Source: Eledone cirrhosa
Taxonomy: Eukaryota
Reading direction: 5' to 3'
Length of the DNA stretch: 64,000 bases
Assembly (NCBI GenBank): GCA_964016885.1
Contig: OZ024742.1
Location: forward strand, 358,732,001-358,796,000
Each line of letters starts with the position of its first letter. Positions within the stretch are counted from its first letter, which is position 1. Of this stretch, positions 3,031-49,491 are shown piece after piece. A program made the position numbers and the translations under genes. The notes under the pieces were generated by a model, which saw nothing but the letters and a program-made list of their open reading frames with translations, was not told the origin of the DNA and made no database searches.

Positions 3031-3221
3031 GTCTGTCTGTCTCTCTGAGGATAGTAGACGTGTGTCATATCGCTCTGTGATTTGGATTTTTACCTGCTAA
3101 TTTTGTGAGTGGATTTTTTTGAATTATTTTGTATAATTAACTGTAACCCCTAGTCTGGGACTCTAGACGTCGGGTAAATATATTTTCACCCCTTTTGGGG
3201 TGAAAAATAAATATTTGAGAA

Positions 3222-4976
3222 ATGTTTATCGATATCGTTGATAACGATATCGTCGAAAACGATATCGCCATATTGGAAGCGAACGCCACGCCGACCAAAA
3301 AAACAAGCGGGAAAGAGGGAACAACAGTTCAAACTGTTGAACAACCCCTCCTCTCCAATGAAAAAAAGAATTTCAATTCAAATGAAAAAATTAATTTTGA
3401 AGAAAAAAATAGCACCACAAATAAGGAAACCAACAACATTACAACAACAAACAAAGACAAAATTTCTTTTGCCCAAACACTTAGGAGAGCCACGGAATAC
3501 AAAGCCATTGACATCACGAACGCCAAGGAAAATTTGCTAGAGGCTAGAAAATACGTATCTTTTGGGGAGGATGGTTCTTTTACGATCAACTCCCCAGAAG
3601 AAGTGCGTGAACAGATTTACAAGAATACCGTAAGCTACAGAACCATAACCAACGAAACGAGAAAGCCAGCGCAATTGACCGAAAGTCAAATCGAGCTGGT
3701 TCTGAAAGAAATTAAAAATGACATACTCTTTATTCAAAGAGGAAAGCTGTATGCCAGCATTATGGTCCGAATGAAGGACGAAATGCTGGCTCAGAAATAT
3801 TCGGTGGCACCTATAGTGTCACCACATTACACCTTCTTCCCCACATATAAAGGAAGAAGAACACAAAGGATAAGAATGTGGAGCCCTACGCCAGAAATTA
3901 ACATCTGGTCCGTCCTAACAGGATTTACCGACCTAGATAAGGACATACTAATTTCAGCAGGGGAGTCCACCAGTGGACTGTTCGGGGGGAAAAGTCTGGA
4001 GGTTCTCTTACAGATGACACCTGAGAGAATCTCCGGAATACCCGACCGAGTGCTACTGGATGGGCGAACCTACATAAATATCACAGTGGAAGGCAGGAGA
4101 CCCTCATGTTACCACTGCGCTGGCAGAGGTCACCTGAGGACGGCCTGCCCTCTACTAACAACAAAAAAACCACTGCTACAAACACCACAACAACAACAAA
4201 AACAACCAGCACCACCATCACAAAAACAACAAAATACACTACCATCACCACCAGAACAACAAAAACCAACAACACCACCACCACCACCACCACAACAACA
4301 ACATCAACAACAGCTCAAGAAAACAACCCAAAACACGGTCCCACCCAGCCCCACCCCACAGAACACAAATACAAAAACAGTTCATACACAACCCGGAGAT
4401 ATACCCCTCCCCTCCAATACGGAAGAGGAGCTCATATCGTCGGAAGACGAGGGGGCTCCCTTCCAAAAAGTGAAAAGAAAAAAACGTACACACACCACAA
4501 CAACAAAAATAACCCCACCTGACAACACAACACAGACAATAAAACGCAAACTCACTCAACAACAACAAGCAAAAACAAACACAACAACACAAAAACTCTA
4601 CACATACATAAACAAAAACAATGAAAACCTAACTTTAAAAATAGAAACCAACCCTTCGATACAAACCGAAGGGCCGAATTTCGTAACGGCAATGGGGCTC
4701 CCTAACCTGAAAATGGTGAAAATCCCACTTGACATTTTTAAAACTTTAAAAGACATGTACCCTGAGGACGTGGGCCCACCCTGCACCAGGCCACTCAACC
4801 GCGTCCTCCTGAAAGGTTTTCCCCTCCCCTCCTCAAACACCCACACAACTCCAAAGATCCCAACCCCTCCACACACCAATACCCCCACACCACCACAAAC
4901 CACCACCCCACCCGTCAACCCCGCCACCAGCCCCATGGAAACTGAGCGACCCGAACCCCGGGACGCAGAGAGGTAA
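3222..4976 (+). CDS. ORF1 gag-like nucleic-acid-binding protein (584 aa), copy 2
   Basis: CCHC knuckle CYHCAGRGHLRTAC (4107-4148), basic NLS-like KVKRKKR, P/Q/T-rich linker; lies upstream of ORF2. Confidence 0.93.
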   Translation: MFIDIVDNDIVENDIAILEANATPTKKTSGKEGTTVQTVEQPLLSNEKKNFNSNEKINFEEKNSTTNKETNNITTTNKDKISFAQTLRRATEYKAIDITNAKENLLEARKYVSFGEDGSFTINSPEEVREQIYKNTVSYRTITNETRKPAQLTESQIELVLKEIKNDILFIQRGKLYASIMVRMKDEMLAQKYSVAPIVSPHYTFFPTYKGRRTQRIRMWSPTPEINIWSVLTGFTDLDKDILISAGESTSGLFGGKSLEVLLQMTPERISGIPDRVLLDGRTYINITVEGRRPSCYHCAGRGHLRTACPLLTTKKPLLQTPQQQQKQPAPPSQKQQNTLPSPPEQQKPTTPPPPPPQQQHQQQLKKTTQNTVPPSPTPQNTNTKTVHTQPGDIPLPSNTEEELISSEDEGAPFQKVKRKKRTHTTTTKITPPDNTTQTIKRKLTQQQQAKTNTTTQKLYTYINKNNENLTLKIETNPSIQTEGPNFVTAMGLPNLKMVKIPLDIFKTLKDMYPEDVGPPCTRPLNRVLLKGFPLPSSNTHTTPKIPTPPHTNTPTPPQTTTPPVNPATSPMETERPEPRDAER

Positions 4977-4999
4977 GTGCCTCTTTCTTTGCCACCAAC

Positions 5000-7900
5000 A
5001 TGGCTGTCTTAAGAGTGGGTTGTCTAAATGCGCGTGGCCTGGGCTCACCTTGGAAGCAAGCTAAACTTCTAAGTGACTTCAGGTCACAATGTGTAAATGT
5101 GATGGTTATTTGCGAGGCCCGGATCAGCAGCATGCGACAGCTAACCCCCACCTTTGATGACTTTGAGATGCACGCATCTCTCTGTCAGCCCGGAGGTGGG
5201 GGTGGGGTTGTCGTTCTGCTGCAAAAACATCTGGGTCTCGCTACACAGACGGTACACTTGGACCCGGAGGGTCGACTCGTGGTTCTGGACCTTGGCAATG
5301 GCGAAGGCGAAGCTTTTAGGCTTGTCGCCGTATACGCCCCTTTTGGGGCAATGCGGTCGGACTTCTTCCATCGTCTGGAGACTTTTCTAGGGACGTCCCG
5401 CTCCTTGCTTTTAGTGGGGGACTGGAATGGTATCCTAGATGCACGTTGGGACTATGTAGGGGCATGTCCCGATAGAGGGGGGTGTAACAGCCTTAAGGGG
5501 TTAATCGGTCGATTCGACCTGGCCGATAGATACCGACTAGATTTTCCGACTGTACCAACCTGGACCTGGTCAAATAACAGTGGTCAATCTAGATCGTACC
5601 TAGATAGGTTCTTAGTTAGAATTAAGGATAGGGACTTTTTAAGTTGTCCAGAAATGCTCATGGTGGGCTATTCAGACCACAAGTTAGTGACCTGCGTAGT
5701 CCACCTTGATAGAACGCATAGGCAGGGGCCCGGTTACTGGAAGCTCAACTTGTCCTTACCGGCAAGTAGAGCTTACAGGGACCGGATTAGAACCTTAGTT
5801 AAGGAGCAGTTGACGGGCGCCATCGTCAACAACAGGTGGTGGGGCTCTCTAAAAAGAGAGATTAGAGTAGTTTCAATAGGAGTTAGTAAGGAGTTAGCCT
5901 CAGATAGAAATAGGAAGGAAAGGGAGTTGGTAGTTAATGTTGAAGAGGCAATGAGAAGCGGCAACGTGGCCAGAGTGCAAGCGTCGAGAACGGTCTTGAA
6001 CCAGTTCTTCGACGCGAAACACGAAGGCTGCGTTGTCCGAAGCAAAATACGTGCTCTGGGAAACGAGGGGACCAAAGCTGTTAGCTGGGCCCGCGTGACA
6101 GAAGCGAAAAGTGGGATTAAATCCACTATCCGGTCTTTGCGAGACCAGGATGGACGGCTGATCCTTGAACCTAAGCAAATGTGCGAGGCCTTTCAAAGGC
6201 ACTTTGCCGAATTGTTCGGGAGGGGCGGGGAGCCGGTTGGAGATGTGGATTTCGGTCCATACCTCGACGGCCTGCCGCGTCTTTCGGACAGGGAGGCGAG
6301 GTCCTGCGACGGGCCGATCTCAGCTGCTGAAATAGGGGACGTGCTGAGCCTATGCGGCAAACGCAAATCTCCAGGACTCGATGGTCTGCCCTACGAACTA
6401 TATATTAATATGCCGGACTTGTTCCCCGATCTCCTCGAGGCGGTCTACTGCAACTGGCAACAGAACGGGAGAATTCCCTGTTCTGTGACCAAGGGCGTAG
6501 TCTCGCTAGTGAGGAAGGACGAGAACAAGGGGGATGACATTAGTAATTTTAGGCCCATAACTCTGCTAAATGCAGAGTTAAAGATTTTGGCGAAGGTGTT
6601 AGCGAAGAGGTTGGCGCTTGTCGTGGGGGGACTGGTGGGAGATGCGCAGACATGCGCTATCCCGTCCAGGTCCATCCACGACAACCTCCACCTCATGCGA
6701 TACATCATAGAGAGGGTTGGGAACGAACCCGGCTTTGGTGGGGCCCTGATAAATTTAGATCAGTCTAAAGCGTTCGATAGAGTGGACCATGGTTACCTGG
6801 ATGCGGTGCTAGCGGCGGCTGGGTTCGGACCCGTTTTCAGGGGCTGGATCACTGCCATGCACAGCAGCCGCATCTGCTCTAGAGTCAAGGTGAACGGCTA
6901 CCTTTCGGAGCCGTTCGAAATCACCCGCTCCATCCGACAGGGGTGCCCTCTCTCCTCCCTTCTGTATGTGTTGACTCTCGAGCCATTACTGCGGAAGTTG
7001 GAGTTGTTGCAGGGCATCCCTTTGGAACCGGGATTGCGCAAAGCGGTGTCGGCCTACGCCGATGACGTAACAGTAATGGTGTCGACCGCCTCGGAAATCG
7101 AGGCAATCGGCACCTTACTAGAGGAGTACGAAAGGTTGACAGGGGCTAAGCTGAACCGGGACAAGTCAGTCGCTTTGCAACTCGGCGAGTGGAGGGGCAA
7201 AGCGATGTCGTGCGACGGTATCGTCGGACGGTGGACGGAGGGCCCGGTGAAGTTGCTTGGGGTCTGGTTCGGACCGGACCTCCAGGTGGAGAAAAACTGG
7301 GGTGAGGTGACGAATAGGGTGTTTGCACTGACCCAGAAGTGGGCCGAGTGCAAACTATCCCTAAAAGGTCGGGCGGAGGTGGCGAACGCTTACATAGCGT
7401 CCGTCATCTATTACCGCTTGACTGTCGTGCCTTGCCCGAGTGAGATCCTCGCCAAAATGGAGCGCGCCCTCTTTTATTTCCTTTGGAAGAAGAGGTCTCC
7501 TCTGGTGAGGAGATCCATCTGCTGTCAACACCCTTTGAAAGGAGGGCTGGGGATGCCGTGGCTAAAAATGCGTAAACACGCATTGAGGCTAAGGCACCTC
7601 CACGTATTCCTCACCGGTCAACCGGTGTGGGCCCCGTTTGTGAGGCGAGCCTTCCCGAGGCTCGTCTCGCTCACCGAGCTGCAGTCCTGGGTGAAGCAAA
7701 GACCGAGAAAACTGGGCGACTGGCACACCGAGTGTGCCCAGGCGCTCACGGCTCTCTGGCAGGCGGACCCGGCTATCGACGGAGACTCCACCTCGTCATT
7801 CTATAGAGGGCTGGTGGTTAGCGGGTGCGACGACGCCCTCGGAGAAGCCCTAGGCATGGAGGAGGACGAACTGGCCAGTCTATTCGGTAGGACTTTCGGC

Positions 7901-8437
7901 CCGGGACCTATGGACAACTTCCAGAAGTCCTTGGCCTGGCAGTGCTACCGAGGGGCTCTGCCCGTTCGGGATAAGCTCTACAGACACGGGCGCCCGGGTA
8001 AGGACCCCTCGAAAAAGATCTGTCCCAGATGCGTGCGCGACGAGGAAACCGTCGCGCACGCATTGGTGCACTGCCCGGGCGTTGCCGATCTGTGGGGCTA
8101 TGTCGAACGACTGCTGTCACGGGTGGGACCAATTAGGTTGACCACCGAGTCCATTGTAACGATCAAGCCGCCTCCCCCCTTCAAAAATGAAGGAGAGGCG
8201 GTCTTCCTCTGTGTAATAGCCATGGTAAAAGAGGCTATATGGTGGACGCGTCTGAAAGGGCTGAGGTCGGACACCTTTCTCTCCGGCCAACAACTGGTCC
8301 TTTTCTTCCAATACCATTTCGGAAGAAGGATCAGGATGGAGAGAGAGGTGCTCCACTCCAGCCAGTTTTATGAAAGGTGGGTGAAAGTTGCGAGAATGGC
8401 CCGTGTGAATGGGCCTTCTCTCTACCTCAGCCTGTAG
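5000..8437 (+). CDS. ORF2 APE endonuclease + reverse transcriptase + zinc finger (1145 aa), copy 2
   Basis: APE motifs LNARGL, ICE, VYAP, GDWN, YLDR, SDH; RT motifs SPGLDG, KAFDRV, QGCPLS, YADD; C-terminal CxxC..H..C. Confidence 0.97.
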   Translation: MAVLRVGCLNARGLGSPWKQAKLLSDFRSQCVNVMVICEARISSMRQLTPTFDDFEMHASLCQPGGGGGVVVLLQKHLGLATQTVHLDPEGRLVVLDLGNGEGEAFRLVAVYAPFGAMRSDFFHRLETFLGTSRSLLLVGDWNGILDARWDYVGACPDRGGCNSLKGLIGRFDLADRYRLDFPTVPTWTWSNNSGQSRSYLDRFLVRIKDRDFLSCPEMLMVGYSDHKLVTCVVHLDRTHRQGPGYWKLNLSLPASRAYRDRIRTLVKEQLTGAIVNNRWWGSLKREIRVVSIGVSKELASDRNRKERELVVNVEEAMRSGNVARVQASRTVLNQFFDAKHEGCVVRSKIRALGNEGTKAVSWARVTEAKSGIKSTIRSLRDQDGRLILEPKQMCEAFQRHFAELFGRGGEPVGDVDFGPYLDGLPRLSDREARSCDGPISAAEIGDVLSLCGKRKSPGLDGLPYELYINMPDLFPDLLEAVYCNWQQNGRIPCSVTKGVVSLVRKDENKGDDISNFRPITLLNAELKILAKVLAKRLALVVGGLVGDAQTCAIPSRSIHDNLHLMRYIIERVGNEPGFGGALINLDQSKAFDRVDHGYLDAVLAAAGFGPVFRGWITAMHSSRICSRVKVNGYLSEPFEITRSIRQGCPLSSLLYVLTLEPLLRKLELLQGIPLEPGLRKAVSAYADDVTVMVSTASEIEAIGTLLEEYERLTGAKLNRDKSVALQLGEWRGKAMSCDGIVGRWTEGPVKLLGVWFGPDLQVEKNWGEVTNRVFALTQKWAECKLSLKGRAEVANAYIASVIYYRLTVVPCPSEILAKMERALFYFLWKKRSPLVRRSICCQHPLKGGLGMPWLKMRKHALRLRHLHVFLTGQPVWAPFVRRAFPRLVSLTELQSWVKQRPRKLGDWHTECAQALTALWQADPAIDGDSTSSFYRGLVVSGCDDALGEALGMEEDELASLFGRTFGPGPMDNFQKSLAWQCYRGALPVRDKLYRHGRPGKDPSKKICPRCVRDEETVAHALVHCPGVADLWGYVERLLSRVGPIRLTTESIVTIKPPPPFKNEGEAVFLCVIAMVKEAIWWTRLKGLRSDTFLSGQQLVLFFQYHFGRRIRMEREVLHSSQFYERWVKVARMARVNGPSLYLSL

Positions 8438-8663
8438 GTGGAACAGAAAGAAGGGAGCACCCTCTCTTTGTGCTCCCGTGGAGAAGGGTCGCACACTTTT
8501 TTTTCGGGGGTGTGTGTGACCCCAAAACGATCCCTCCCTATTGAGGACCTTCTTGTTACTATTTTGTTTGTTATATTTTTCTTACTCGATTTTTATGTAA
8601 ACTCCCCCCACCCATGTACATGTCCCTTTCTTTTGTGCCCTAGTGGCAAATAAACAGAAATTT

Positions 8664-9811
8664 GTCTGTTCCTTTGTCTGCCAGTCTGCCTCTATGTCTG
8701 TCTGTCTATCTGGCTGTCTGCCTCTCTGTTTGTCAATCTGCCTGTCTGCCTGTCAGTATGTCTACCTGTCTATCTGTCTGTCTGCCTGTCAGTATGTCTA
8801 CCTGTCTATCTGTCTGTCTGCCTGTCAGTATGTCTACCTGTCTATCTGTCTGTCTACCTGTCAGTATGTCTACCTGTCTATCTGTCTGTCTGCCTGTCAG
8901 TATGTCTACCTGTCTATCTGTCTGTCTGCCTGTCAGTATGTCTACCTGTCTATCTGTCTGTCTGCCTGTCAGTATGTCTACCTGTCTATCTGTCTGTCTG
9001 CCTGTCAGTGTGTCTACCTGTCTATCTGTCTGTCTGCCTGTCAGTATGTCTACCTGTCTATCTGTCTGTCTACCTGTCAGTGTGTCTACCTGTCTATCTG
9101 TCTGTCTGCCTGTCAGTATGTCTACCTGTCTATCTGTCTGTCTACCTGTCAGTATGTCTACCTGTCTATCTGTCTGTCTACCTGTCAGTATGTCTACCTG
9201 TCTATCTGTCTGTCTGCCTGTCAGTATGTCTACCTGTCTATCTGTCTGTCTACCTGTCAGTATGTCTACCTGTCTATCTGTCTGTCTACCTGTCAGTATG
9301 TCTACCTGTCTATCTGTCTGTCTGCCTGTCAGTGTGTCTACCTGTCTATCTGTCTGTCTACCTGTCAGTGTGTCTACCTGTCCATCTGTCTGTCTACCTG
9401 TCAGTATGTCTACCTGTCTATCTGTCTGTCTACCTGTCAGTATGTCTACCTGTCTATCTGTCTGTCTACCTGTCAGTATGTCTACCTGTCTATCTGTCTG
9501 TCTACCTGTCAGTGTGTCTACCTGTCCATCTGTCTGTCTACCTGTCAGTATGTCTACCTGTCTATCTGTCTGTCTACCTGTCAGTATGTCTACCTGTCTA
9601 TCTGTCTGTCTGCCTGTCAGTGTGTCTACCTGTCAATCTGTCTGTCTACCTGTCAGTGTGTCTACCTGTCCATCTGTCTGTCTACCTGTCAGTATGTCTA
9701 CCTGTCTATCTGTCTGTCTGCCTGTCAGTATGTCTACCTGTCTATCTGTCTGTCTACCTGTCAGTATGTCTACCTGTCTATCTGTCTGTCTACCTGTCTG
9801 TCTGTCTCTCT
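8664..9811. repeat. 36-bp minisatellite (~29 units) made of nine TGTC-like tetramers, with a degenerate left end
   Basis: Unit TGTCTACCTGTCTATCTGTCTGTCT(G/A)CCTGTCAGT(A/G); 12-aa periodicity in the ORF track. Confidence 0.97.
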
Positions 9812-9986
9812 GAGGATAGTAGACGTGTGTCATATCGCTCTGTGATTTGGATTTTTACCTGCTAATTTTGTGAGTGGATTTTTTTGAATTATTTTGTATA
9901 ATTAACTGTAACCCCTAGTCTGGGACTCTAGACGTCGGGTAAATATATTTTCACCCCTTTTGGGGTGAAAAATAAATATTTGAGAA

Positions 9987-11741
9987 ATGTTTATCGATAT
10001 CGTTGATAACGATATCGTCGAAAACGATATCGCCATATTGGAAGCGAACGCCACGCCGACCAAAAAAACAAGCGGGAAAGAGGGAACAACAGTTCAAACT
10101 GTTGAACAACCCCTCCTCTCCAATGAAAAAAAGAATTTCAATTCAAATGAAAAAATTAATTTTGAAGAAAAAAATAGCACCACAAATAAGGAAACCAACA
10201 ACATTACAACAACAAACAAAGACAAAATTTCTTTTGCCCAAACACTTAGGAGAGCCACGGAATACAAAGCCATTGACATCACGAACGCCAAGGAAAATTT
10301 GCTAGAGGCTAGAAAATACGTATCTTTTGGGGAGGATGGTTCTTTTACGATCAACTCCCCAGAAGAAGTGCGTGAACAGATTTACAAGAATACCGTAAGC
10401 TACAGAACCATAACCAACGAAACGAGAAAGCCAGCGCAATTGACCGAAAGTCAAATCGAGCTGGTTCTGAAAGAAATTAAAAATGACATACTCTTTATTC
10501 AAAGAGGAAAGCTGTATGCCAGCATTATGGTCCGAATGAAGGACGAAATGCTGGCTCAGAAATATTCGGTGGCACCTATAGTGTCACCACATTACACCTT
10601 CTTCCCCACATATAAAGGAAGAAGAACACAAAGGATAAGAATGTGGAGCCCTACGCCAGAAATTAACATCTGGTCCGTCCTAACAGGATTTACCGACCTA
10701 GATAAGGACATACTAATTTCAGCAGGGGAGTCCACCAGTGGACTGTTCGGGGGGAAAAGTCTGGAGGTTCTCTTACAGATGACACCTGAGAGAATCTCCG
10801 GAATACCCGACCGAGTGCTACTGGATGGGCGAACCTACATAAATATCACAGTGGAAGGCAGGAGACCCTCATGTTACCACTGCGCTGGCAGAGGTCACCT
10901 GAGGACGGCCTGCCCTCTACTAACAACAAAAAAACCACTGCTACAAACACCACAACAACAACAAAAACAACCAGCACCACCATCACAAAAACAACAAAAT
11001 ACACTACCATCACCACCAGAACAACAAAAACCAACAACACCACCACCACCACCACCACAACAACAACATCAACAACAGCTCAAGAAAACAACCCAAAACA
11101 CGGTCCCACCCAGCCCCACCCCACAGAACACAAATACAAAAACAGTTCATACACAACCCGGAGATATACCCCTCCCCTCCAATACGGAAGAGGAGCTCAT
11201 ATCGTCGGAAGACGAGGGGGCTCCCTTCCAAAAAGTGAAAAGAAAAAAACGTACACACACCACAACAACAAAAATAACCCCACCTGACAACACAACACAG
11301 ACAATAAAACGCAAACTCACTCAACAACAACAAGCAAAAACAAACACAACAACACAAAAACTCTACACATACATAAACAAAAACAATGAAAACCTAACTT
11401 TAAAAATAGAAACCAACCCTTCGATACAAACCGAAGGGCCGAATTTCGTAACGGCAATGGGGCTCCCTAACCTGAAAATGGTGAAAATCCCACTTGACAT
11501 TTTTAAAACTTTAAAAGACATGTACCCTGAGGACGTGGGCCCACCCTGCACCAGGCCACTCAACCGCGTCCTCCTGAAAGGTTTTCCCCTCCCCTCCTCA
11601 AACACCCACACAACTCCAAAGATCCCAACCCCTCCACACACCAATACCCCCACACCACCACAAACCACCACCCCACCCATCAACCCCGCCACCAGCCCCA
11701 TGGAAACTGAGCGACCCGAACCCCGGGACGCAGAGAGGTAA
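9987..11741 (+). CDS. ORF1 (584 aa), copy 3
   Basis: Near-identical to copy 2 ORF1. Confidence 0.93.
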   Translation: MFIDIVDNDIVENDIAILEANATPTKKTSGKEGTTVQTVEQPLLSNEKKNFNSNEKINFEEKNSTTNKETNNITTTNKDKISFAQTLRRATEYKAIDITNAKENLLEARKYVSFGEDGSFTINSPEEVREQIYKNTVSYRTITNETRKPAQLTESQIELVLKEIKNDILFIQRGKLYASIMVRMKDEMLAQKYSVAPIVSPHYTFFPTYKGRRTQRIRMWSPTPEINIWSVLTGFTDLDKDILISAGESTSGLFGGKSLEVLLQMTPERISGIPDRVLLDGRTYINITVEGRRPSCYHCAGRGHLRTACPLLTTKKPLLQTPQQQQKQPAPPSQKQQNTLPSPPEQQKPTTPPPPPPQQQHQQQLKKTTQNTVPPSPTPQNTNTKTVHTQPGDIPLPSNTEEELISSEDEGAPFQKVKRKKRTHTTTTKITPPDNTTQTIKRKLTQQQQAKTNTTTQKLYTYINKNNENLTLKIETNPSIQTEGPNFVTAMGLPNLKMVKIPLDIFKTLKDMYPEDVGPPCTRPLNRVLLKGFPLPSSNTHTTPKIPTPPHTNTPTPPQTTTPPINPATSPMETERPEPRDAER

Positions 11742-11764
11742 GTGCCTCTTTCTTTGCCACCAAC

Positions 11765-17365: not shown

Positions 17366-17388
17366 GTGCCTCTTTCTTTGCCACCAAC

Positions 17389-22989: not shown

Positions 22990-23012
22990 GTGCCTCTTTC
23001 TTTGCCACCAAC

Positions 23013-28625: not shown

Positions 28626-28648
28626 GTGCCTCTTTCTTTGCCACCAAC

Positions 28649-34183: not shown

Positions 34184-34206
34184 GTGCCTCTTTCTTTGCC
34201 ACCAAC

Positions 34207-37200: not shown

Positions 37201-37644
37201 CCGGGTAGGGACCCCTCGAAAAAGATCTGTCCCAGATGCGTGCGCGACGAGGAAACCGTCGCGCACGCATTGGTGCACTGCCCGGGCGTTGCCGATCTGT
37301 GGGGCTATGTTGAACAACTGCTGTAACGGGTGGGACCAATTAGGTTGACCACCGAGTCCATTGTAACGATCAAGCCGCCTCCCCCCTTCAAAAATGAAGG
37401 AGAGGCGGTCTTCCTCTGTGTAATAGCCATGGTAAAAGAGGCTATATGGTGGACGCGTCTGAAAGGGCTGAGGTCGGACACCTTTCTCTCCGGCCAACAA
37501 CTGGTCCTTTTCTTCCGATACCATTTCGGAAGAAGGATCAGGATGGAGAGAGAGGTGCTCCACTCCAGCCAGTTTTATGAAAGGTGGGTGAAAGTTGCGA
37601 GAATGGCCCGTGTGAATGGGCCTTCTCTCTACCTCAGCCTGTAG
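34207..37644 (+). pseudogene. ORF2 of copy 7 with the same premature stop as copy 5
   Basis: ORF ends at 37326; the remainder continues in frame to 37644. Confidence 0.9.
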
Positions 37645-38064
37645 GTGGAACAGAAAGAAGGGAGCACCCTCTCTTTGTGCTCCCGTGGAGAAGGGTCGCA
37701 CACTTTTTTTCGGGGGTGTGTGTGACCCCAAAACGATCCCTCCCTATTGAGGACCTTCTTGTTACTATTTTGTTTGTTATATTTTTCTTACTCGATTTTT
37801 ATGTAAACTCCCCCCACCCATGTACATGTCCCTTTCTTTTGTGCCCTAGTGGCAAATAAACAGAAATTTATCTGTCTGTCTGTCTGTCTGAGGATAGTAG
37901 ACGTGTGTCATATCGCTCTGTGATTTGGATTTTTACCTGCTAATTTTGTGAGTGGATTTTTTTGAATTATTTTGTATAATTAACTGTAACCCCTAGTCTG
38001 GGACTCTAGACGTCGGGTAAATATATTTTCACCCCTTTTGGGGTGAAAAATAAATATTCGAGAA

Positions 38065-39819: not shown

Positions 39820-39842
39820 GTGCCTCTTTCTTTGCCACCAAC

Positions 39843-42800
39843 ATGGCTGTCTTAAGAGTGGGTTGTCTAAATGCGCGTGGCCTGGGCTCACCTTGGAAGC
39901 AAGCTAAACTTCTAAGTGACTTCAGGTCACAATGTGTAAATGTGATGGTTATTTGCGAGGCCCGGATCAGCAGCATGCGACAGCTAACCCCCACCTTTGA
40001 TGACTTTGAGATGCACGCATCTCTCTGTCAGCCCGGAGGTGGGGGTGGGGTTGTCGTTCTGCTGCAAAAACATCTGGGTCTCGCTACACAGACGGTACAC
40101 TTGGACCCGGAGGGTCGACTCGTGGTTCTGGACCTTGGCAATGGCGAAGGCGAAGCTTTTAGGCTTGTCGCCGTATACGCCCCTTTTGGGGCAATGCGGT
40201 CGGACTTCTTCCATCGTCTGGAGACTTTTCTAGGGACGTCCCGCTCCTTGCTTTTAGTGGGGGACTGGAATGGTATCCTAGATGCACGTTGGGACTATGT
40301 AGGGGCATGTCCCGATAGAGGGGGGTGTAACAGCCTTAAGGGGTTAATCGGTCGATTCGACCTGGCCGATAGATACCGACTAGATTTTCCGACTGTACCA
40401 ACCTGGACCTGGTCAAATAACAGTGGTCAATCTAGATCGTACCTAGATAGGTTCTTAGTTAGAATTAAGGATAGGGACTTTTTAAGTTGTCCAGAAATGC
40501 TCATGGTGGGCTATTCAGACCACAAGTTAGTGACCTGCGTAGTCCACCTTGATAGAACGCATAGGCAGGGGCCCGGTTACTGGAAGCTCAACTTGTCCTT
40601 ACCGGCAAGTAGAGCTTACAGGGACCGGATTAGAACCTTAGTTAAGGAGCAGTTGACGGGCGCCATCGTCAACAACAGGTGGTGGGGCTCTCTAAAAAGA
40701 GAGATTAGAGTAGTTTCAATAGGAGTTAGTAAGGAGTTAGCCTCAGATAGAAATAGGAAGGAAAGGGAGTTGGTAGTTAATGTTGAAGAGGCAATGAGAA
40801 GCGGCAACGTGGCCAGAGTGCAAGCGTCGAGAACGGTCTTGAACCAGTTCTTCGACGCGAAACACGAAGGCTGCGTTGTCCGAAGCAAAATACGTGCTCT
40901 GGGAAACGAGGGGACCAAAGCTGTTAGCTGGGCCCGCGTGACAGAAGCGAAAAGTGGGATTAAATCCACTATCCGGTCTTTGCGAGACCAGGATGGACGG
41001 CTGATCCTTGAACCTAAGCAAATGTGCGAGGCCTTTCAAAGGCACTTTGCCCAATTGTTCGGGAGGGGCGGGGAGCCGGTTGGAGATGTGGATTTCGGTC
41101 CATACCTCGACGGCCTGCCGCGTCTTTCGGACAGGGAGGCGAGGTCCTGCGACGGGCCGATCTCAGCTGCTGAAATAGGGGACGTGCTGAGCCTATGCGG
41201 CAAACGCAAATCTCCAGGACTCGATGGTCTGCCCTACGAACTATATATTAATATGCCGGACTTGTTCCCCGATCTCCTCGAGGCGGTCTACTGCAACTGG
41301 CAACAGAACGGGAGAATTCCCTGTTCTGTGACCAAGGGCGTAGTCTCGCTAGTGAGGAAGGACGAGAACAAGGGGGATGACATTAGTAATTTTAGGCCCA
41401 TAACTCTGCTAAATGCAGAGTTAAAGATTTTGGCGAAGGTGTTAGCGAAGAGGTTGGCGCTTGTCGTGGGGGGCCTGGTGGGAGATGCGCAGACATGCGC
41501 TATCCCGTCCAGGTCCATCCACGACAACCTCCACCTCATGCGATACATCATAGAGAGGGTTGGGAACGAACCCGGCTTTGGTGGGGCCCTGATAAATTTA
41601 GATCAGTCTAAAGCGTTCGATAGGGTGGACCATGGTTACCTGGATGCGGTGCTAGCGGCGGCTGGGTTCGGACCCGTTTTCAGGGGCTGGATCACTGCCA
41701 TGCACAGCAGCCGCATCTGCTCTAGAGTCAAGGTGAACGGCTACCTTTCGGAGCCGTTCGAAATCACCCGCTCCATCCGACAGGGGTGCCCTCTCTCCTC
41801 CCTTCTGTATGTGTTGACTCTCGAGCCATTACTGCGGAAGTTGGAGTTGTTGCAGGGCATCCCTTTGGAACCGGGATTGCGCAAAGCGGTGTCGGCCTAC
41901 GCCGATGACGTAACAGTAATGGTGTCGACCGCCTCGGAAATCGAGGCGATCGGCACCTTACTAGAGGAGTACGAAAGGTTGACAGGGGCTAAGCTGAACC
42001 GGGACAAGTCAATCGCTTTGCAACTCGGCGAGTGGAGGGGCAAAGCGATGTCGTGCGACGGTATCGTCGGACGGTGGACGGAGGGCCCGGTGAAGCTGCT
42101 TGGGGTCTGGTTCGGACCGGACCTCCAGGTGGAGAAAAACTGGGGTGAGGTGACGAATAGGGTGTTTGCACTGACCCAGAAGTGGGCCGAGTGCAAACTA
42201 TCCCTAAAAGGTCGGGCGGAGGTGGCGAACGCTTACATAGCGTCCGTCATCTATTACCGCTTGACTGTCGTGCCTTGCCCGGGTGAGATCCTCGCCAAAA
42301 TGGAGCGCGCCCTCTTTTATTTCCTTTGGAAGAAGAGGTCTCCTCTAGTGAGGAGATCCATCTGCTGTCAACACCCTTTGAAAGGAGGGCTGGGGATGCC
42401 GTGGCTAAAAATGCGTAAACACGCATTGAGGCTAAGGCACCTCCACGTATTCCTCACCGGTCAACCGGTGTGGGCCCCGTTTGTGAGGCGAGCCTTCCCG
42501 AGGCTCGTCTCGCTCACCGAGCTGCAGTCCTGGGTGAAGCAAAGACCGAGAAAACTGGGCGACTGGCACACCGAGTGTGCCCAGGCGCTCACGGCACTCT
42601 GGCAGGCGGACCCGGCTATCGACGGAGACTCCACCTCGTCATTCTATAGAGGGCTGGTGGTTAGCGGGTGCGACGACGCCCTCGGAGAAGCCCTAGGCAT
42701 GGAGGAGGACGAACTGGCCAGTCTATTCGGTAGGACTTTCGGCCCGGGACCTATGGACAACTTCCAGAAGTCCTTGGCCTGGCAGTGCTACCGAGGGGCT

Positions 42801-43202
42801 CTGCCTGTTCGGGATAAGCTCTACAGACACGGGCGCCCGGGTAGGGACCCCTCGAAAAAGATCTGTCCCAGATGCGTGCGCGACGAGGAAACCGTCGCGC
42901 ACGCATTGGTGCACTGCCCGGGCGTTGCCGATCTGTGGGGCTATGTCGAACGACTGCTGTCACGGGTGGGACCAATTAGGTTGACCACCGAAAAAGAGGC
43001 TATATGGTGGACGCGTCTGAAAGGGCTGAGGTCGGACACCTTTCTCTCCGGCCAACAACTGGTCCTTTTCTTCCGATACCATTTCGGAAGAAGGATCAGG
43101 ATGGAGAGAGAGGTGCTCCACTCCAGCCAGTTTTATGAAAGGTGGGTGAAAGTTGCGAGAATGGCCCGTGTGAATGGGCCTTCTCTCTACCTCAGCCTGT
43201 AG
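39843..43202 (+). CDS. ORF2 (1119 aa), copy 8, with 26-aa deletion
   Basis: Same deletion as copy 6. Confidence 0.9.
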   Translation: MAVLRVGCLNARGLGSPWKQAKLLSDFRSQCVNVMVICEARISSMRQLTPTFDDFEMHASLCQPGGGGGVVVLLQKHLGLATQTVHLDPEGRLVVLDLGNGEGEAFRLVAVYAPFGAMRSDFFHRLETFLGTSRSLLLVGDWNGILDARWDYVGACPDRGGCNSLKGLIGRFDLADRYRLDFPTVPTWTWSNNSGQSRSYLDRFLVRIKDRDFLSCPEMLMVGYSDHKLVTCVVHLDRTHRQGPGYWKLNLSLPASRAYRDRIRTLVKEQLTGAIVNNRWWGSLKREIRVVSIGVSKELASDRNRKERELVVNVEEAMRSGNVARVQASRTVLNQFFDAKHEGCVVRSKIRALGNEGTKAVSWARVTEAKSGIKSTIRSLRDQDGRLILEPKQMCEAFQRHFAQLFGRGGEPVGDVDFGPYLDGLPRLSDREARSCDGPISAAEIGDVLSLCGKRKSPGLDGLPYELYINMPDLFPDLLEAVYCNWQQNGRIPCSVTKGVVSLVRKDENKGDDISNFRPITLLNAELKILAKVLAKRLALVVGGLVGDAQTCAIPSRSIHDNLHLMRYIIERVGNEPGFGGALINLDQSKAFDRVDHGYLDAVLAAAGFGPVFRGWITAMHSSRICSRVKVNGYLSEPFEITRSIRQGCPLSSLLYVLTLEPLLRKLELLQGIPLEPGLRKAVSAYADDVTVMVSTASEIEAIGTLLEEYERLTGAKLNRDKSIALQLGEWRGKAMSCDGIVGRWTEGPVKLLGVWFGPDLQVEKNWGEVTNRVFALTQKWAECKLSLKGRAEVANAYIASVIYYRLTVVPCPGEILAKMERALFYFLWKKRSPLVRRSICCQHPLKGGLGMPWLKMRKHALRLRHLHVFLTGQPVWAPFVRRAFPRLVSLTELQSWVKQRPRKLGDWHTECAQALTALWQADPAIDGDSTSSFYRGLVVSGCDDALGEALGMEEDELASLFGRTFGPGPMDNFQKSLAWQCYRGALPVRDKLYRHGRPGRDPSKKICPRCVRDEETVAHALVHCPGVADLWGYVERLLSRVGPIRLTTEKEAIWWTRLKGLRSDTFLSGQQLVLFFRYHFGRRIRMEREVLHSSQFYERWVKVARMARVNGPSLYLSL

Positions 43203-43427
43203 GTGGAACAGAAAGAAGGGAGCACCCTCTCTTTGTGCTCCCGTGGAGAAGGGTCGCACACTTTTTTTCGGGGGTGTGTGTGACCCCAAAACGATCCCTC
43301 CCTATTGAGGACCTTCTTGTTACTATTTTGTTTGTTATATTTTTCTTACTCGATTTTTATGTAAACTCCCCCCACCCATGTACATGTCCCTTTCTTTTGT
43401 GCCCTAGTGGCAAATAAACAGAAATTT

Positions 43428-43475
43428 ATCTGTCTGTCTGCCTGTTAGTATGTCTACCTGTCTGTCTGTCTGTCT
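43428..43475. repeat. 48-bp spacer containing about one unit of the 36-bp minisatellite
   Basis: ATCTGTCTGTCTGCCTGTTAGTATGTCTACCTGTCTGTCTGTCTGTCT. Confidence 0.9.
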
Positions 43476-43650
43476 GAGGATAGTAGACGTGTGTCATATC
43501 GCTCTGTGATTTGGATTTTTACCTGCTAATTTTGTGAGTGGATTTTTTTGAATTATTTTGTATAATTAACTCTAACCCCTAGTCTGGGACTCTAGACGTC
43601 GGGTAAATATATTTTCACCCCTTTTGGGGTGAAAAATAAATATTTGAGAA

Positions 43651-45405
43651 ATGTTTATCGATATCGTTGATAACGATATCGTCGAAAACGATATCGCCAT
43701 ATTGGAAGCGAACGCCACGCCGACCAAAAAAACAAGCGGGAAAGAGGGAACAACAGTTCAAACTGTTGAACAACCCCTCCTCTCCAATGAAAAAAAGAAT
43801 TTCAATTCAAATGAAAAAATTAATTTTCAAGAAAAAAATAACACCACAAATAAGGAAACCAACAACATTACAACAACAAACAAAGACAAAATTTCTTTTG
43901 CCCAAACACTCAAGAGAGCCACGGAGTACAAAGCCATTGACATCACGAACGCCAAGGAAAATTTGCTAGAGGCTAGAAAATACGTATCTTTTGGGGAGGA
44001 TGGTTCTTTTACGATCAACTCCCCAGAAGAAGTGCGTCAACAGATTTACAAGAATACCGTAAGCTTCAGAACCATAACCAACGAAACGAGAAAGCCAGCG
44101 CAATTGACCGAAAGTCAAATCGAGCTGGTTCTGAAAGAAATTAAAAATGACATACTCTTTATTCAAAGAGGAAAGCTGTATGCCAGCATTATGGTCCGAA
44201 TGAAGGACGAAATGCTGGCTCAGAAATATTCGGTGGCACCTATAGTGTCACCACAATACACCTTCTTCCCCACATATAAAGGAAGAAGAACACAAAGGAT
44301 AAGAATGTGGAGCCCTACGCCAGAAATTAACATCTGGTCCGTCCTAACAGGATTTACCGACCTAGATAAGGACATACTAATTTCAGCAGGGGAGTCCACC
44401 AGTGGACTGTTCGGGGGGAAAAGTCTGGAGGTTCTCTTACAGATGACACCTGAGAGAATCTCCGGAATACCCGACCGAGTGCTACTGGATGGGCGAACCT
44501 ACATAAATATCACAGTGGAAGGCAGGAGACCCTCATGTTACCACTGCGCTGGCAGAGGTCACCTGAGGACGGCCTGCCCTCTACTAACAACTAAAAAACC
44601 ACTGCTACAAACACCACAACAACAACAAAAACAACCAGCACCACCATCACAAAAACAACAAAATACACTACCATCTCCACCAGAACAACAAAAACCAACA
44701 ACACCACCACCACCACCACAACAACAACAACATCAACAACAGCTCAAGAAAACAACCCAAAACACGGTCCCACCCAGCCCCACCCCACAGAACACAAATA
44801 CAAAAACAGTTCATACACAACCCGGAGATATACCCCTCCCCTCCAATACGGAAGAGGAGCTCATATCGTCGGAAGACGAGGGGGCTCCCTTCCAAAAAGT
44901 GAAAAGAAAAAAACGTACACACACCACAACAACAAAAATAACCCCACCTGACAACACAACACAGACAATAAAACGCAAACTCACTCAACAACAACAAGCA
45001 AAAACAAACACAACAACACAAAAACTCTACACATACATAAACAAAAACAATGAAAACCTAACTTTAAAAATAGAAACCAACCCTTCGATACAAACCGAAG
45101 GGCCGAATTTCGTAACGGCAATGGGGCTCCCTAACCTGAAAATGGTGAAAATCCCACTTGACATTTTTAAAACTTTAAAAGACATGTACCCTGAGGACGT
45201 GGGCCCACCCTGCACCAGGCCACTCAACCGCGTCCTCCTGAAAGGTTTTCCCCTCCCCTCCTCAAACACCCACACAACTCCAAAGATCCCAACCCCTCCA
45301 CACACCAATACCCCCACACCACCACAAACCACCACCCCACCCATCAACCCCGCCACCAGCCCCATGGAAACTGAGCGACCCGAACCCCGGGACGCAGAGA
45401 GGTAA
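43651..45405 (+). CDS. ORF1 (584 aa), copy 9
   Basis: CCHC knuckle intact. Confidence 0.93.
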   Translation: MFIDIVDNDIVENDIAILEANATPTKKTSGKEGTTVQTVEQPLLSNEKKNFNSNEKINFQEKNNTTNKETNNITTTNKDKISFAQTLKRATEYKAIDITNAKENLLEARKYVSFGEDGSFTINSPEEVRQQIYKNTVSFRTITNETRKPAQLTESQIELVLKEIKNDILFIQRGKLYASIMVRMKDEMLAQKYSVAPIVSPQYTFFPTYKGRRTQRIRMWSPTPEINIWSVLTGFTDLDKDILISAGESTSGLFGGKSLEVLLQMTPERISGIPDRVLLDGRTYINITVEGRRPSCYHCAGRGHLRTACPLLTTKKPLLQTPQQQQKQPAPPSQKQQNTLPSPPEQQKPTTPPPPPQQQQHQQQLKKTTQNTVPPSPTPQNTNTKTVHTQPGDIPLPSNTEEELISSEDEGAPFQKVKRKKRTHTTTTKITPPDNTTQTIKRKLTQQQQAKTNTTTQKLYTYINKNNENLTLKIETNPSIQTEGPNFVTAMGLPNLKMVKIPLDIFKTLKDMYPEDVGPPCTRPLNRVLLKGFPLPSSNTHTTPKIPTPPHTNTPTPPQTTTPPINPATSPMETERPEPRDAER

Positions 45406-45428
45406 GTGCCTCTTTCTTTGCCACCAAC

Positions 45429-48400
45429 ATGGCTGTCTTAAGAGTGGGTTGTCTAAATGCGCGTGGCCTGGGCTCACCTTGGAAGCAAGCTAAACTTCTA
45501 AGTGACCTCAGGTCACAATGTGTAAATGTGATGGTTATTTGCGAGGCCCGGATCAGCAGCATGCGACAGCTAACCCCCACCTTTGATGACTTTGAGATGC
45601 ACGCATCTCTCTGTCAGCCCGGAGGTGGGGGTGGGGTTGTCGTTCTGCTGCAAAAACATCTGGGTCTCGCTACACAGACGGTACACTTGGACCCGGAGGG
45701 TCGACTCGTGGTTCTGGACCTTGGCAATGGCGAAGGCGAAGCTTTTAGGCTTGTCGCCGTATACGCCCCTTTTGGGGCAATGCGGTCGGACTTCTTCCAT
45801 CGTCTGGAGACTTTTCTAGGGACGTCCCGCTCCTTGCTTTTAGTGGGGGACTGGAATGGTATCCTAGATGCACGTTGGGACTATGTAGGGGCATGTCCCG
45901 ATAGAGGGGGGTGTAACAGCCTTAAGGGGTTAATCGGCCGATTCGACCTGGCCGATAGATACCGACTAGATTTTCCGACTGTACCAACCTGGACCTGGTC
46001 AAATAACAGTGGTCAATCTAGATCGTACCTAGATAGGTTCTTAGTTAGAATTAAGGATAGGGACTTTTTAAGTTGTCCAGAAATGCTCATGGTGGGCTAT
46101 TCAGACCACAAGTTAGTGACCTGCGTAGTCCACCTTGATAGAACGCATAGGCAGGGGCCCGGTTACTGGAAGCTCAACTTGTCCTTACCGGCAAGTAGAG
46201 CTTACAGGGACCGGATTAGAACCTTAGTTAAGGAGCAGTTGACGGGCGCCATCGTCAACAACAGGTGGTGGGGCTCTCTAAAAAGAGAGATTAGAGTAGT
46301 TTCAATAGGAGTTAGTAAGGAGTTAGCCTCAGATAGAAATAGGAAGGAAAGGGAGTTGGTAGTTAATGTTGAAGAGGCAATGAGAAGCGGCAACGTGGCC
46401 AGAGTGCAAGCGTCGAGAACGGTCTTGAACCAGTTCTTCGACGCGAAACACGAAGGCTGCGTTGTCCGAAGCAAAATACGTGCTCTGGGAAACGAGGGGA
46501 CCAAAGCTGTTAGCTGGGCCCGCGTGACAGAAGCGAAAAGTGGGATTAAATCCACTATCCGGTCTTTGCGAGACCAGGATGGACGGCTGATCCTTGAACC
46601 TAAGCAAATGTGCGAGGCCTTTCAAAGGCACTTTGCCCAATTGTTCGGGAGGGGCGGGGAGCCGGTTGGAGATGTGGATTTCGGTCCATACCTCGACGGC
46701 CTGCCGCGTCTTTCGGACAGGGAGGCGAGGTCCTGCGACGGACCGATCTCAGCTGCTGAAATAGGGGACGTGCTGAGCCTATGCGGCAAACGCAAATCTC
46801 CAGGACTCGATGGTCTGCCCTACGAACTATATATTAATATGCCGGACTTGTTCCCCGATCTCCTCGAGGCGGTCTACTGCAACTGGCAACAGAACGGGAG
46901 AATTCCCTGTTCTGTGACCAAGGGCGTAGTCTCGCTAGTGAGGAAGGACGAGAACAAGGGGGATGACATTAGTAATTTTAGGCCCATAACTCTGCTAAAT
47001 GCAGAGTTAAAGATTTTGGCGAAGGTGTTAGCGAAGAGGTTGGCGCTTGTCGTGGGGGGCCTGGTGGGAGATGCGCAGACATGCGCTATCCCGTCCAGGT
47101 CCATCCACGACAACCTCCACCTCATGCGATACATCATAGAGAGGGTTGGGAACGAACCCGGCTTTGGTGGGGCCCTGATAAATTTAGATCAGTCTAAAGC
47201 GTTCGATAGGGTGGACCATGGTTACCTGGATGCGGTGCTAGCGGCGGCTGGGTTCGGACCCGTTTTCAGGGGCTGGATCACTGCCATGCACAGCAGCCGC
47301 ATCTGCTCTAGAATCAAGGTGAACGGCTACCTTTCGGAGCCGTTCGAAATCACCCGCTCCATCCGACAGGGGTGCCCTCTCTCCTCCCTTCTGTATGTAT
47401 TGACTCTCGAGCCATTACTGCGGAAGTTGGAGTTGTTGCAGGGCATCCCTTTGGAACCGGGATTGCGCAAAGCGGTGTCGGCCTACGCCGATGACGTAAC
47501 AGTAATGGTGTCGACCGCCTCGGAAATCGAGGCAATCGGCACCTTACTAGAGGAGTACGAAAGGTTGACAGGGGCTAAGCTGAACCGGGACAAGTCAGTC
47601 GCTTTGCAACTCGGCGAGTGGAGGGGCAAAGCGATGTCGTGCGACGGTATCGTCGGACGGTGGACGGAGGGCCCGGTGAAGTTGCTTGGGGTCTGGTTCG
47701 GACCGGACCTCCAGGTGGAGAAAAACTGGGGTGAGGTGACGAATAGGGTGTTTGCACTGACCCAGAAGTGGGCCGACTTCAAACTATCCCTAAAAGGTCG
47801 GGCGGAGGTGGCGAACGCTTACATAGCGTCCGTCATCTATTACCGCTTGACTGTCGTGCCTTGCCCGGGTGAGATCCTCGCCAAAATGGAACGCGCCCTC
47901 TTTTATTTCCTTTGGAAGAAGAGGTCTCCTCTAGTGAGGAGATCCATCTGCTGTCAACACCCTTTGAAAGGAGGGCTGGGGATGCCGTGGCTAAAAATGC
48001 GTAAACACGCATTGAGGCTAAGGCACCTCCACGTATTCCTCACCGGTCAACCGGTGTGGGCCCCGTTTGTGAGGCGAGCCTTCCCGAGGCTCGTCTCGCT
48101 CACCGAGCTGCAGTCCTGGGTGAAGCAAAGACCGAGAAAACTGGGCGACTGGCACACCGAGTGTGCCCAGGCGCTCACGGCTCTCTGGCAGGCGGACCCG
48201 GCTATCGACGGAGACTCCACCTCGTCATTCTATAGAGGGCTGGTGGTTAGCGGGTGCGACGACGCCCTCGGAGAAGCCCTAGGCATGGAGGAGGACGAAC
48301 TGGCCAGTCTATTCGGTAGGACTTTCGGCCCGGGACCTATGGACAACTTCCAGAAGTCCTTGGCCTGGCAGTGCTACCGAGGGGCTCTGCCCGTTCGGGA

Positions 48401-48866
48401 TAAGCTCTACAGACACGGGCGCCCGGGTAGGGACCCCTCGAAAAAGATCTGTCCCAGATGCGTGCGCGACGAGGAAACCGTCGCGCACGCATTGGTGCAC
48501 TGCCCGGGCGTTGCCGATCTGTGGGGCTATGTCGAACGACTGCTGTCACGGGTGGGACCAATTAGGTTGACCACCGAGTCCATTGTAACGATCAAGCCGC
48601 CTCCCCCCTTCAAAAATGAAGGAGAGGCGGTCTTCCTCTGTGTAATAGCCATGGTAAAAGAGGCTATATGGTGGACGCGTCTGAAAGGGCTGAGGTCGGA
48701 CACCTTTCTCTCCGGCCAACAACTGGTCCTTTTCTTCCGATACCATTTCGGAAGAAGGATCAGGTTGGAGAGAGAGGTGCTCCACTCCAGCCAGTTTTAT
48801 GAAAGGTGGGTGAAAGTTGCGAGAATGGCCCGTGTGAATGGGCCTTCTCTCTACCTCAGCCTGTAG
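45429..48866 (+). CDS. ORF2 (1145 aa), copy 9
   Basis: APE, RT and zinc-finger motifs intact. Confidence 0.97.
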   Translation: MAVLRVGCLNARGLGSPWKQAKLLSDLRSQCVNVMVICEARISSMRQLTPTFDDFEMHASLCQPGGGGGVVVLLQKHLGLATQTVHLDPEGRLVVLDLGNGEGEAFRLVAVYAPFGAMRSDFFHRLETFLGTSRSLLLVGDWNGILDARWDYVGACPDRGGCNSLKGLIGRFDLADRYRLDFPTVPTWTWSNNSGQSRSYLDRFLVRIKDRDFLSCPEMLMVGYSDHKLVTCVVHLDRTHRQGPGYWKLNLSLPASRAYRDRIRTLVKEQLTGAIVNNRWWGSLKREIRVVSIGVSKELASDRNRKERELVVNVEEAMRSGNVARVQASRTVLNQFFDAKHEGCVVRSKIRALGNEGTKAVSWARVTEAKSGIKSTIRSLRDQDGRLILEPKQMCEAFQRHFAQLFGRGGEPVGDVDFGPYLDGLPRLSDREARSCDGPISAAEIGDVLSLCGKRKSPGLDGLPYELYINMPDLFPDLLEAVYCNWQQNGRIPCSVTKGVVSLVRKDENKGDDISNFRPITLLNAELKILAKVLAKRLALVVGGLVGDAQTCAIPSRSIHDNLHLMRYIIERVGNEPGFGGALINLDQSKAFDRVDHGYLDAVLAAAGFGPVFRGWITAMHSSRICSRIKVNGYLSEPFEITRSIRQGCPLSSLLYVLTLEPLLRKLELLQGIPLEPGLRKAVSAYADDVTVMVSTASEIEAIGTLLEEYERLTGAKLNRDKSVALQLGEWRGKAMSCDGIVGRWTEGPVKLLGVWFGPDLQVEKNWGEVTNRVFALTQKWADFKLSLKGRAEVANAYIASVIYYRLTVVPCPGEILAKMERALFYFLWKKRSPLVRRSICCQHPLKGGLGMPWLKMRKHALRLRHLHVFLTGQPVWAPFVRRAFPRLVSLTELQSWVKQRPRKLGDWHTECAQALTALWQADPAIDGDSTSSFYRGLVVSGCDDALGEALGMEEDELASLFGRTFGPGPMDNFQKSLAWQCYRGALPVRDKLYRHGRPGRDPSKKICPRCVRDEETVAHALVHCPGVADLWGYVERLLSRVGPIRLTTESIVTIKPPPPFKNEGEAVFLCVIAMVKEAIWWTRLKGLRSDTFLSGQQLVLFFRYHFGRRIRLEREVLHSSQFYERWVKVARMARVNGPSLYLSL

Positions 48867-49091
48867 GTGGAACAGAAAGAAGGGAGCACCCTCTCTTTGT
48901 GCTCCCGTGGAGAAGGGTCGCACACTTTTTTTCGGGGGTGTGTGTGACCCCAAAACGATCCCTCCCTATTGAGGACCTTCTTGTTATTATTTTGTTTGTT
49001 ATATTTTTCTTACTCGATTTTTATGTAAACTCCCCCCACCCATGTACATGTCCCTTTCTTTTGTGCCCTAGTGGCAAATAAACAGAAATTT

Positions 49092-49491
49092 GTCTGTCTA
49101 CCTGTCAGTATGTCTACCTGTCTATCTGTCTGTCTGCCTGTCAGTATGTCTACCTGTCTATCTGTCTGTCTACCTGTCAGTATGTCTACCTGTCTATCTG
49201 TCTGTCTGCCTGTCAGTATGTCTACCTGTCTATCTGTCTGTCTGCCTGTCAGTGTGTCTACCTGTCTATCTGTCTGTCTGCCTGTCAGTATGTCTACCTG
49301 TCTATCTGTCTGTCTGCCTGTCAGTATGTCTACCTGTCTATCTGTCTGTCTGCCTGTCAGTATGTCTACCTGTCTATCTGTCTGTCTGCCTGTCAGTATG
49401 TCTACCTGTCTATCTGTCTGTCTGCCTGTCAGTGTGTCTACCTGTCTATCTGTCTGTCTGCCTGTCAGTATGTCTACCTGTCTATCTGTCT
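49092..49491. repeat. 36-bp minisatellite (~11 units), same unit as 8664-9811
   Basis: Direct inspection. Confidence 0.97.

Follow-up and report, generated by a model that had tools for sequence, protein, structure and literature searches.

A tail-less, putatively Tx1-type LINE array with fixed-register junctions in an (RTCT)n repeat of Eledone cirrhosa and its relatives with unrelated spacers

Target choice in long interspersed nuclear elements (LINEs) of the apurinic/apyrimidinic endonuclease (APE) type is usually credited to the endonuclease. Tx1 elements carry an APE (PMC4640811), and several of them favor microsatellites: Kibi (TC)n, Koshi (TTC)n and the crocodilian Tx1 (TTCC)n/(TTTC)n (PMC4494074). 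In that work, a Tx1 counts as microsatellite-specific when the target type occurs in >20% of family flanks genome-wide, and U2 small nuclear RNA (snRNA) is the defining target of Keno. An annotation of Octopus vulgaris lists 13 recently active L1-Tx1 families, and the passages seen give no targets for them (PMC13282606). Outside Tx1, the GGUU of SART1Bm RNA anneals to the target, exchange of its endonuclease changes specificity and poly(A) is needed for accuracy (PMC7265360). A Drosophila R1 array has 33-nt ribosomal DNA (rDNA) spacers, and arrays of transposable elements (TEs) that arise by double insertion and later unequal exchange have been described (PMC5932611). Here we analyzed a 64,000-nt stretch of Eledone cirrhosa DNA (GCA_964016885.1, contig OZ024742.1, positions 358,732,001 to 358,796,000, forward strand; the whole stretch is called the window), which contains a head-to-tail array of nine copies of one putative Tx1-type LINE, eight full-length (5538-5617 bp) and one partial, differing pairwise at 1-33 positions. 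The partial first copy is designated c0 and the full-length copies c1-c8 (Table 1); c0 was copy 1 of an earlier sequence-only reading of this DNA.

All the junctions of the array were found to share one register. Each of the 8 full-length starts reads TCT followed by GAGGATAG, and each of the 9 ends reads GAAATTT followed by (G/A)TCTGT (positions in Table 1), exactly as the sequence-only reading had reported. Its statement that AATAAA lies 9 nt before the end without an A-tail was also confirmed in 9/9 copies; the 9 nt are CAGAAATTT, and no A-run follows. Including an older relative that borders the array, poly(A) between the 3' end and the target-site duplication (TSD) was absent from 10/10 window ends. 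The spacers measure 16, 1148, 8, 8, 20, 20, 20, 48 and 400 bp, the last stopping at 49491 where the older relative begins. These lengths had been correctly given as multiples of 4, but this is a consequence of junctions fixed in a 4-periodic target, and only 6/9 lengths are distinct. Both element ends are ambiguous by 1 nt, the terminal T and first G being compatible with the repeat as well. The target is (RTCT)n, i.e. (TCTG/TCTA)n, and not pure TCTG, right flanks opening with ATCT in 4/9 cases. The long spacers consist of a 36-bp minisatellite of nine in-phase 4-mers derived from a degenerate tetranucleotide repeat, and in the 1148-bp spacer one phase holds 155/157 TCT.

These junctions do not represent nine independent events. 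Copies c5 and c7 have 1 difference and a common 78-bp deletion, and c4 and c6 have a common stop at ORF2 codon 1040; c4-c7 were amplified later, at least partly, at the DNA level. Assembly duplication as their source appeared to be rejected by the 6 and 1 differences found within the pairs. The three 20-mer spacers were counted as one event because unequal exchange explains the shared lesions of c4-c7, and c6 would itself be a product of such exchange. Copy c3 is likewise a mosaic, c8-like in its 5' part and c4-like in its 3' part. The sequence-only reading had noted the same 8-mer on both sides of its copy 4 (c3) and the same 20-mer around its copies 6 and 7, and had taken them for TSDs; the repeats are present, but the 20-mers fail as independent TSDs, its copies 5 and 7 sharing the nonsense codon and 6 and 8 the 78-bp deletion. 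The derived lesions and the three identical 20-mers tie together only part of the array. Among 40 variable ORF2 columns, 22 were synonymous, 17 non-synonymous and 1 a stop, relative to 12.0 +/- 2.8 synonymous columns expected from the same substitution types (P = 0.0006); a single neutrally duplicated insertion therefore does not fit.

Four insertion sites were recognized in one (RTCT)n block: c0/c1, c2-c7, c8 and the older relative. This relative, absent from the sequence-only reading, is 282/387 = 73% identical to the element and lies where the repeat block ends on the right, with the same phase and strand. Its flanks, ATCTGTCT and ATCTCTCT, are alike at 7/8 positions (an imperfect 8-bp TSD), and ATCT follows; the chance level of RTCT is 109/14135 flank positions. 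A raw-read junction from another individual, at a related 3' end, reads AATAAA, AGAAACAT, then ATCT ATTT GTCT GTCT ATCT ATCT, then an ORF2-internal start. It came from a read and contig search of four runs at 85% likeness, in which depth is not copy number, and comprised 105 reads in one row among the matches listed, possibly one locus and one start. The same strand and phase were thus seen at the four block sites and at the read junction. The repeat fits 10/10 window 3' ends and 1/1 listed read junction, of which only ~5 events are independent. On these ~5 events, and independently of the array duplications, a family-level preference for (RTCT)n with a fixed register and a tail-less end is likely. 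The earlier proposal of tail-less (TCTG)n targeting thus stands for the preference, the register and the missing poly(A), while the repeat needed redefinition and the count of events reduction.

We next consider how the register might be set. RNA cleavage takes place 10-30 nt past AAUAAA and requires a downstream U/GU-rich tract. The element ends at or just after AATAAA, and its RNA would therefore end in the donor flank; the ends of the 8-, 16- and 20-bp window spacers lie 17, 25 and 29 nt past AATAAA. We propose that the element RNA is cut 10-30 nt past AAUAAA and would retain a few (R)UCU units of the donor right flank, that these units would pair with the nicked (AGAY)n strand and prime reverse transcription, and that priming upstream of poly(A) would leave out the tail, hold the register constant and restore the site. 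Since every insertion would recreate a place to pair, arrays could grow. The carried flank here would happen to be a common microsatellite, and the family would behave as microsatellite-specific. We infer the position of the RNA 3' end, the RNA-DNA pairing and a loosely specific APE. That the register is set by element RNA carrying the donor 3' flank is, in our judgment, reasonably probable, and priming by read-through RNA, as the sequence-only reading had suggested, is the best-supported mechanism. Read-through R2Ol RNA that anneals to target DNA was shown to raise retrotransposition (PMC6530143), in line with this proposal. In-phase nicking by the APE, which had also been claimed, cannot be deduced from the junctions: pairing of the RNA would by itself be enough to set the register, whatever the nick position.

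Sister families were obtained from a scan of prokaryote genomes, which identified 38 loci, with ORF2 40-43% identical to the query, in eukaryote-like DNA binned into one metagenome-assembled genome (MAG). Eukaryote-like DNA that carries LINE arrays amounts to several hundred kb in this Arenicella-labelled bacterial species-representative MAG (G001, contigs C3-C19; L081-L116, L120, L125-L161) and is likely host contamination. A bacterial origin of the arrays was rejected, the flanks being microsatellite-rich eukaryote-like DNA binned into the MAG. The sister sample comprised 36 stretches from contigs C3-C19 (C16 in part). No A-run of at least 6 within 30 nt was found at 67 sister 3' ends (0/67), which were taken as matches to the motif GTGCC...AATAAA, so that ends without it would be missed; A-rich tails occurred at 4/21 distant loci examined. 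Nearly all the sister ends lie in head-to-tail arrays without any microsatellite. Eight sister subfamilies have endonuclease (EN) domains that are 90-96% identical and unrelated 11-20-nt spacers, and over the 36 pairs among 9 sister spacers the 14 bases after AATAAA match at a mean of 3.3/14. The EN beta-hairpin loop, which has been linked to target choice (PMC1950540) and was placed by alignment and that paper, is identical in 11/12 sister rows.

The sister arrays also contain 5'-truncated copies directly behind an intact spacer, with two different truncation points, as is characteristic of fresh retrotransposition into the junction. On 5 contigs a single spacer family is present, and it gives way to two unique right flanks, unrelated to each other, after 17 nt in one case and 12 nt in the other. 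In this family, 26/406 spacer positions were variable vs 4/1740 in the adjoining 3' untranslated region (UTR), counted in 29/31 rows (2 dropped for indels) that are not independent. At five sister array starts, the left flank resembled the spacer beyond chance in C18, C6 and C17 (each P = 0.0002); C18 is a perfect 16-bp TSD, C6 matches over the last 16 bases and C17 is imperfect. Travel of the flank with the element is supported in the sister families. We put forward only tentatively the wider idea that a clade of tail-less APE LINEs chooses its site mainly by RNA-DNA pairing, the 11-20 flank bases after AAUAAA serving as a heritable, replaceable guide. Each lineage would re-target its own junction and build arrays, and the octopod lineage would be tied to (RTCT)n for no other reason than the microsatellite nature of its guide.

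Two further observations were made in these families. Sister ends (e.g. L085 9125-9161) carry a hairpin directly before AATAAA, the arms of which seem to change together between subfamilies, and this hairpin is a probable recognition signal for the reverse transcriptase (RT). The terminal hairpin is clear in the sister families and weak in the window element (z -0.33) and was unused as evidence. A second, distinct tail-less array family (L148, contig C13) has an ORF2 that is 48% identical to that of the main sister family.

Several points weigh against guidance by a carried flank. The left flanks of C3 (P = 0.11) and C19 (P = 0.10) were within chance of the spacer, and homology-based site choice at new loci is therefore not shown. 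For the C19 left flank, a post hoc test limited to its first 10 nt gave P = 0.004; controls did not support either flank as a partial spacer match. Simple double insertion at a TSD is enough to account for C18 and C6, and the spacer common to two loci could have spread by ectopic exchange between arrays. The RNA 3' end is placed from sequence. Outside the young array just two junctions came to light, and one of these belongs to the same repeat block; the tandem junction itself was confirmed by no read or contig row among the matches listed. Furthermore, RTCT has persisted in the octopod lineage through 27% divergence, in contrast to the fast turnover of sister spacers, and a specific APE would account for this as well. 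In vitro, Tx1L-EN shows sequence specificity and nicks almost only its own target (PMC1950540), and this provides a real prior for APE specificity in the clade.

A serious rival, though in our view the less probable one, is that the APE itself recognizes (AGAY)n and cuts it in a single phase (AGAY^AGAY, bottom strand), with the RT starting at a defined 3' structure and skipping the tail, and arrays arising by repeated insertion at renewed TSDs. The microsatellite preferences of Kibi, Koshi and crocodilian Tx1 (PMC4494074) favor such an enzyme, as does the RTCT flank retained in three diverged octopod-type ends. Both long-spacer 5' junctions adjoin a unit carrying GTCT in the place where ATCT stands in 40/40 uninserted units (P = 0.001 if independent), which makes for purer GTCT runs than in those units, and the window EN, 41-42% identical to those of the sisters, may have evolved its own specificity. 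However, the nick position is unreadable from the junctions if RNA pairs with the repeat, the nearly identical sister ENs accompany unrelated spacers, and the tail-less end and the array habit occur without any microsatellite. The tetranucleotide-specific APE of the sequence-only reading is hence not implied, and its case is lowered by these sisters; nor is a tetranucleotide preference novel, the crocodilian Tx1 with such a preference being already described (PMC4494074). APE specificity and RNA pairing may act together.

We consider it improbable that one (or very few) microsatellite insertions were amplified by unequal exchange, the junctions being inherited without a real target preference. 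The lesions shared by c5/c7 and c4/c6, the mosaics c3 and c6 and the common variant 16-bp left flank of c1 and c2 all suit such a history, and TE arrays built by double insertion with subsequent unequal exchange are on record (PMC5932611). Yet the four separate sites in one block with six kinds of spacer, the synonymous excess, and the 73%-identical relative and the read junction in the same phase speak against it, and amplification as the sole cause is largely refuted. Least credible of all is that (RUCU)n is a self-made tail produced by RT slippage, from which the blocks grew. Short-repeat tails are found in L2, CR1 and RTE elements, and a repeat does follow every 3' end here. On the other hand, the same 36-bp minisatellite flanks c2-c8 on both sides and recurs in the 48-bp spacer, and the block therefore predates those insertions. 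The minisatellite is also found 5' of the old copy, to the right of which only ~10 bases are repeat-like, and the sister families have no repeat tail. Pairing of a carried RNA flank with the target remains the account that we prefer for the register.

The coding capacity of the array element was analyzed with Pfam. PF03372 (E 1.7e-6) was above cut-off and PF00078 had an E of 1.3e-26, while zf-CCHC (E 0.067) and zf-RVT (26.4 bits) were both slightly under their cut-offs. ORF1 was found in 8/8 full copies. ORF2 has the conserved APE motifs N10, E39, Y112, D141/N143, D202 and D226/H227 and an RT YADD at 686, and its endonuclease matched an L1-EN chimera by structure (E 0.001). The element looks intact. 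A separate ORF1 with a CCHC knuckle and a C-terminal zinc domain in ORF2 are features of Tx1. The proteins closest to the window ORF2 were an NCBI entry at 69% and an Argonauta hians protein at 64%, which makes an octopod host likely. In an RT tree of 80 rows built by a quick method, the element and these two proteins group together (100) and are sister to 20 rows of ~40% identity (99 by the SH-like approximate likelihood ratio test, SH-aLRT), forming a 23-row clade. A Keno-like locus inserted in U2 snRNA falls outside this clade and inside a larger 71-row group with a weak support of 86. We file the element as a putative 5.6-kb Tx1-type LINE (APE-RT-zinc finger). A search of the ESM Atlas returned generic APE-RT clusters only, a single-protein scan of metagenomes yielded 0/43 candidates, viral contigs yielded 0/79 candidates and no match to the 3'-end motif, and an Rfam search of the window found no RNA gene.

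Table 1. Features of the window (positions in nt; aa, amino acids)
Feature	Position	Strand	Remarks
c0, 3' part, cut by window start	1..3030	+	ORF2 open to 2805
16-bp spacer GTCT GTCT GTCT CTCT	3031..3046	+	identical to c2 left flank
c1, full-length, 5617 bp	3047..8663	+	
ORF1 of c1, 584 aa	3222..4976	+	Q/T/P-rich; weak CCHC zinc knuckle aa 295-310, Pfam E 0.067, under cut-off
ORF2 of c1, 1145 aa	5000..8437	+	APE (PF03372), RT (PF00078), zf-RVT (PF13966)
3' end of c1, AATAAA + CAGAAATTT	8649..8663	+	without poly(A); identical in 9/9 copies
1148-bp target block	8664..9811	+	degenerate (RTCT)n, then ~30 units of 36-bp minisatellite, same 4-nt phase
c2, full-length	9812..15427	+	ORF2 1145 aa
c3 (copy 4 of the sequence-only reading)	15436..21051	+	perfect 8-bp GTCTGTCT on both sides
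c4	21060..26675	+	ORF2 stops early at codon 1040, stop common to c6
c5	26696..32233	+	78-bp in-frame deletion near ORF2 end, common to c7
c6	32254..37869	+	5' part c5-like, 3' part c4-like
c7	37890..43427	+	carries the deletion of c5
48-bp spacer	43428..43475	+	one minisatellite unit + (GTCT)4
c8, most divergent full copy	43476..49091	+	25-33 differences; perfect 8-bp TSD; separate insertion site
400-bp block	49092..49491	+	11 units of 36-bp minisatellite as in 1148-bp spacer
Older 5'-truncated relative	49492..49865	+	ends AATAAAGAAATTT, without tail

We also noted that the left flank of c1 (3031-3046) equals that of c2 (9796-9811), in the variant ending CTCT, despite 1148 bp of block between them. 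The shared flank may stem from 5' carry-over or from a larger duplication; the window begins inside c0. Elsewhere in the window, an open frame at 60019-60648 (+) resembles what we take to be the C-terminal part of an RTE-type LINE ORF, and a 41-bp tandem repeat (~6 copies) occupies 54162-54445. In three contig sets whose organism labels differ, relatives at 85% likeness gave ORF2 about a hundredfold the depth of ORF1, which suggests that the family is large and that its 5' halves have been exchanged or lost. At another locus (L051 4930-5130), the A-rich tail of an element runs into transfer RNA (tRNA)-like sequence within a tRNA cluster.

The clade offers natural pairs of near-identical proteins with unrelated junctions, in which the shares of RNA pairing and endonuclease could be tested through the 10-20-nt RNA end. 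If the RNA decides, the clade would provide a compact programmable integration system and would explain how LINEs become satellite arrays; swapping the last 10-20 RNA bases would then redirect a 5.6-kb cargo with the protein unchanged. If the APE decides, the element merely adds a new target to those of the microsatellite-specific Tx1 and is of modest interest. In the literature searched, which left most subscription papers and Repbase outside, we found no (TCTG)n-targeting Tx1 and no tail-less Tx1 arrays with lineage-specific spacers; flank-guided, self-renewing targeting was likewise not found, most subscription papers again being outside the search.

Like Kibi, Koshi and crocodilian Tx1, the window element is an APE-type two-ORF LINE that favors a short tandem repeat, tetranucleotides included. 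Unlike them, its target is (TCTG/TCTA)n and its host is likely a mollusc. It is also tail-less, forms long arrays and has sisters with non-repeat spacers in its 23-row clade, features that may set it further apart from the three. The Keno-like Tx1 (L016 5815-5977), inserted in U2 snRNA and named by its insertion site, has the same ORF2 architecture (28% identity) and a fixed insertion site, but a 13-nt A-run lies between its AATAAA end and the target. In R2Ol and SART1Bm, as in our proposal, the 3' sequence of the RNA matches the target and anneals to its nicked strand; in those two elements a single target is set by the endonuclease, whereas here the paired sequence would be the donor's flank, changing between subfamilies. 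The R1 array resembles those of the window and the sisters in its head-to-tail order, target-derived spacers, 5'-truncated members and later DNA-level expansion. However, R1 spacers are the fixed rDNA target, while those of the element's clade are specific to subfamilies, vary more than the UTR next to them and recur at different loci. The window element thus appears to be a Tx1 of the already described microsatellite-specific type, and the tail-less, flank-carrying behavior that it seems to share with its sisters is what is new.

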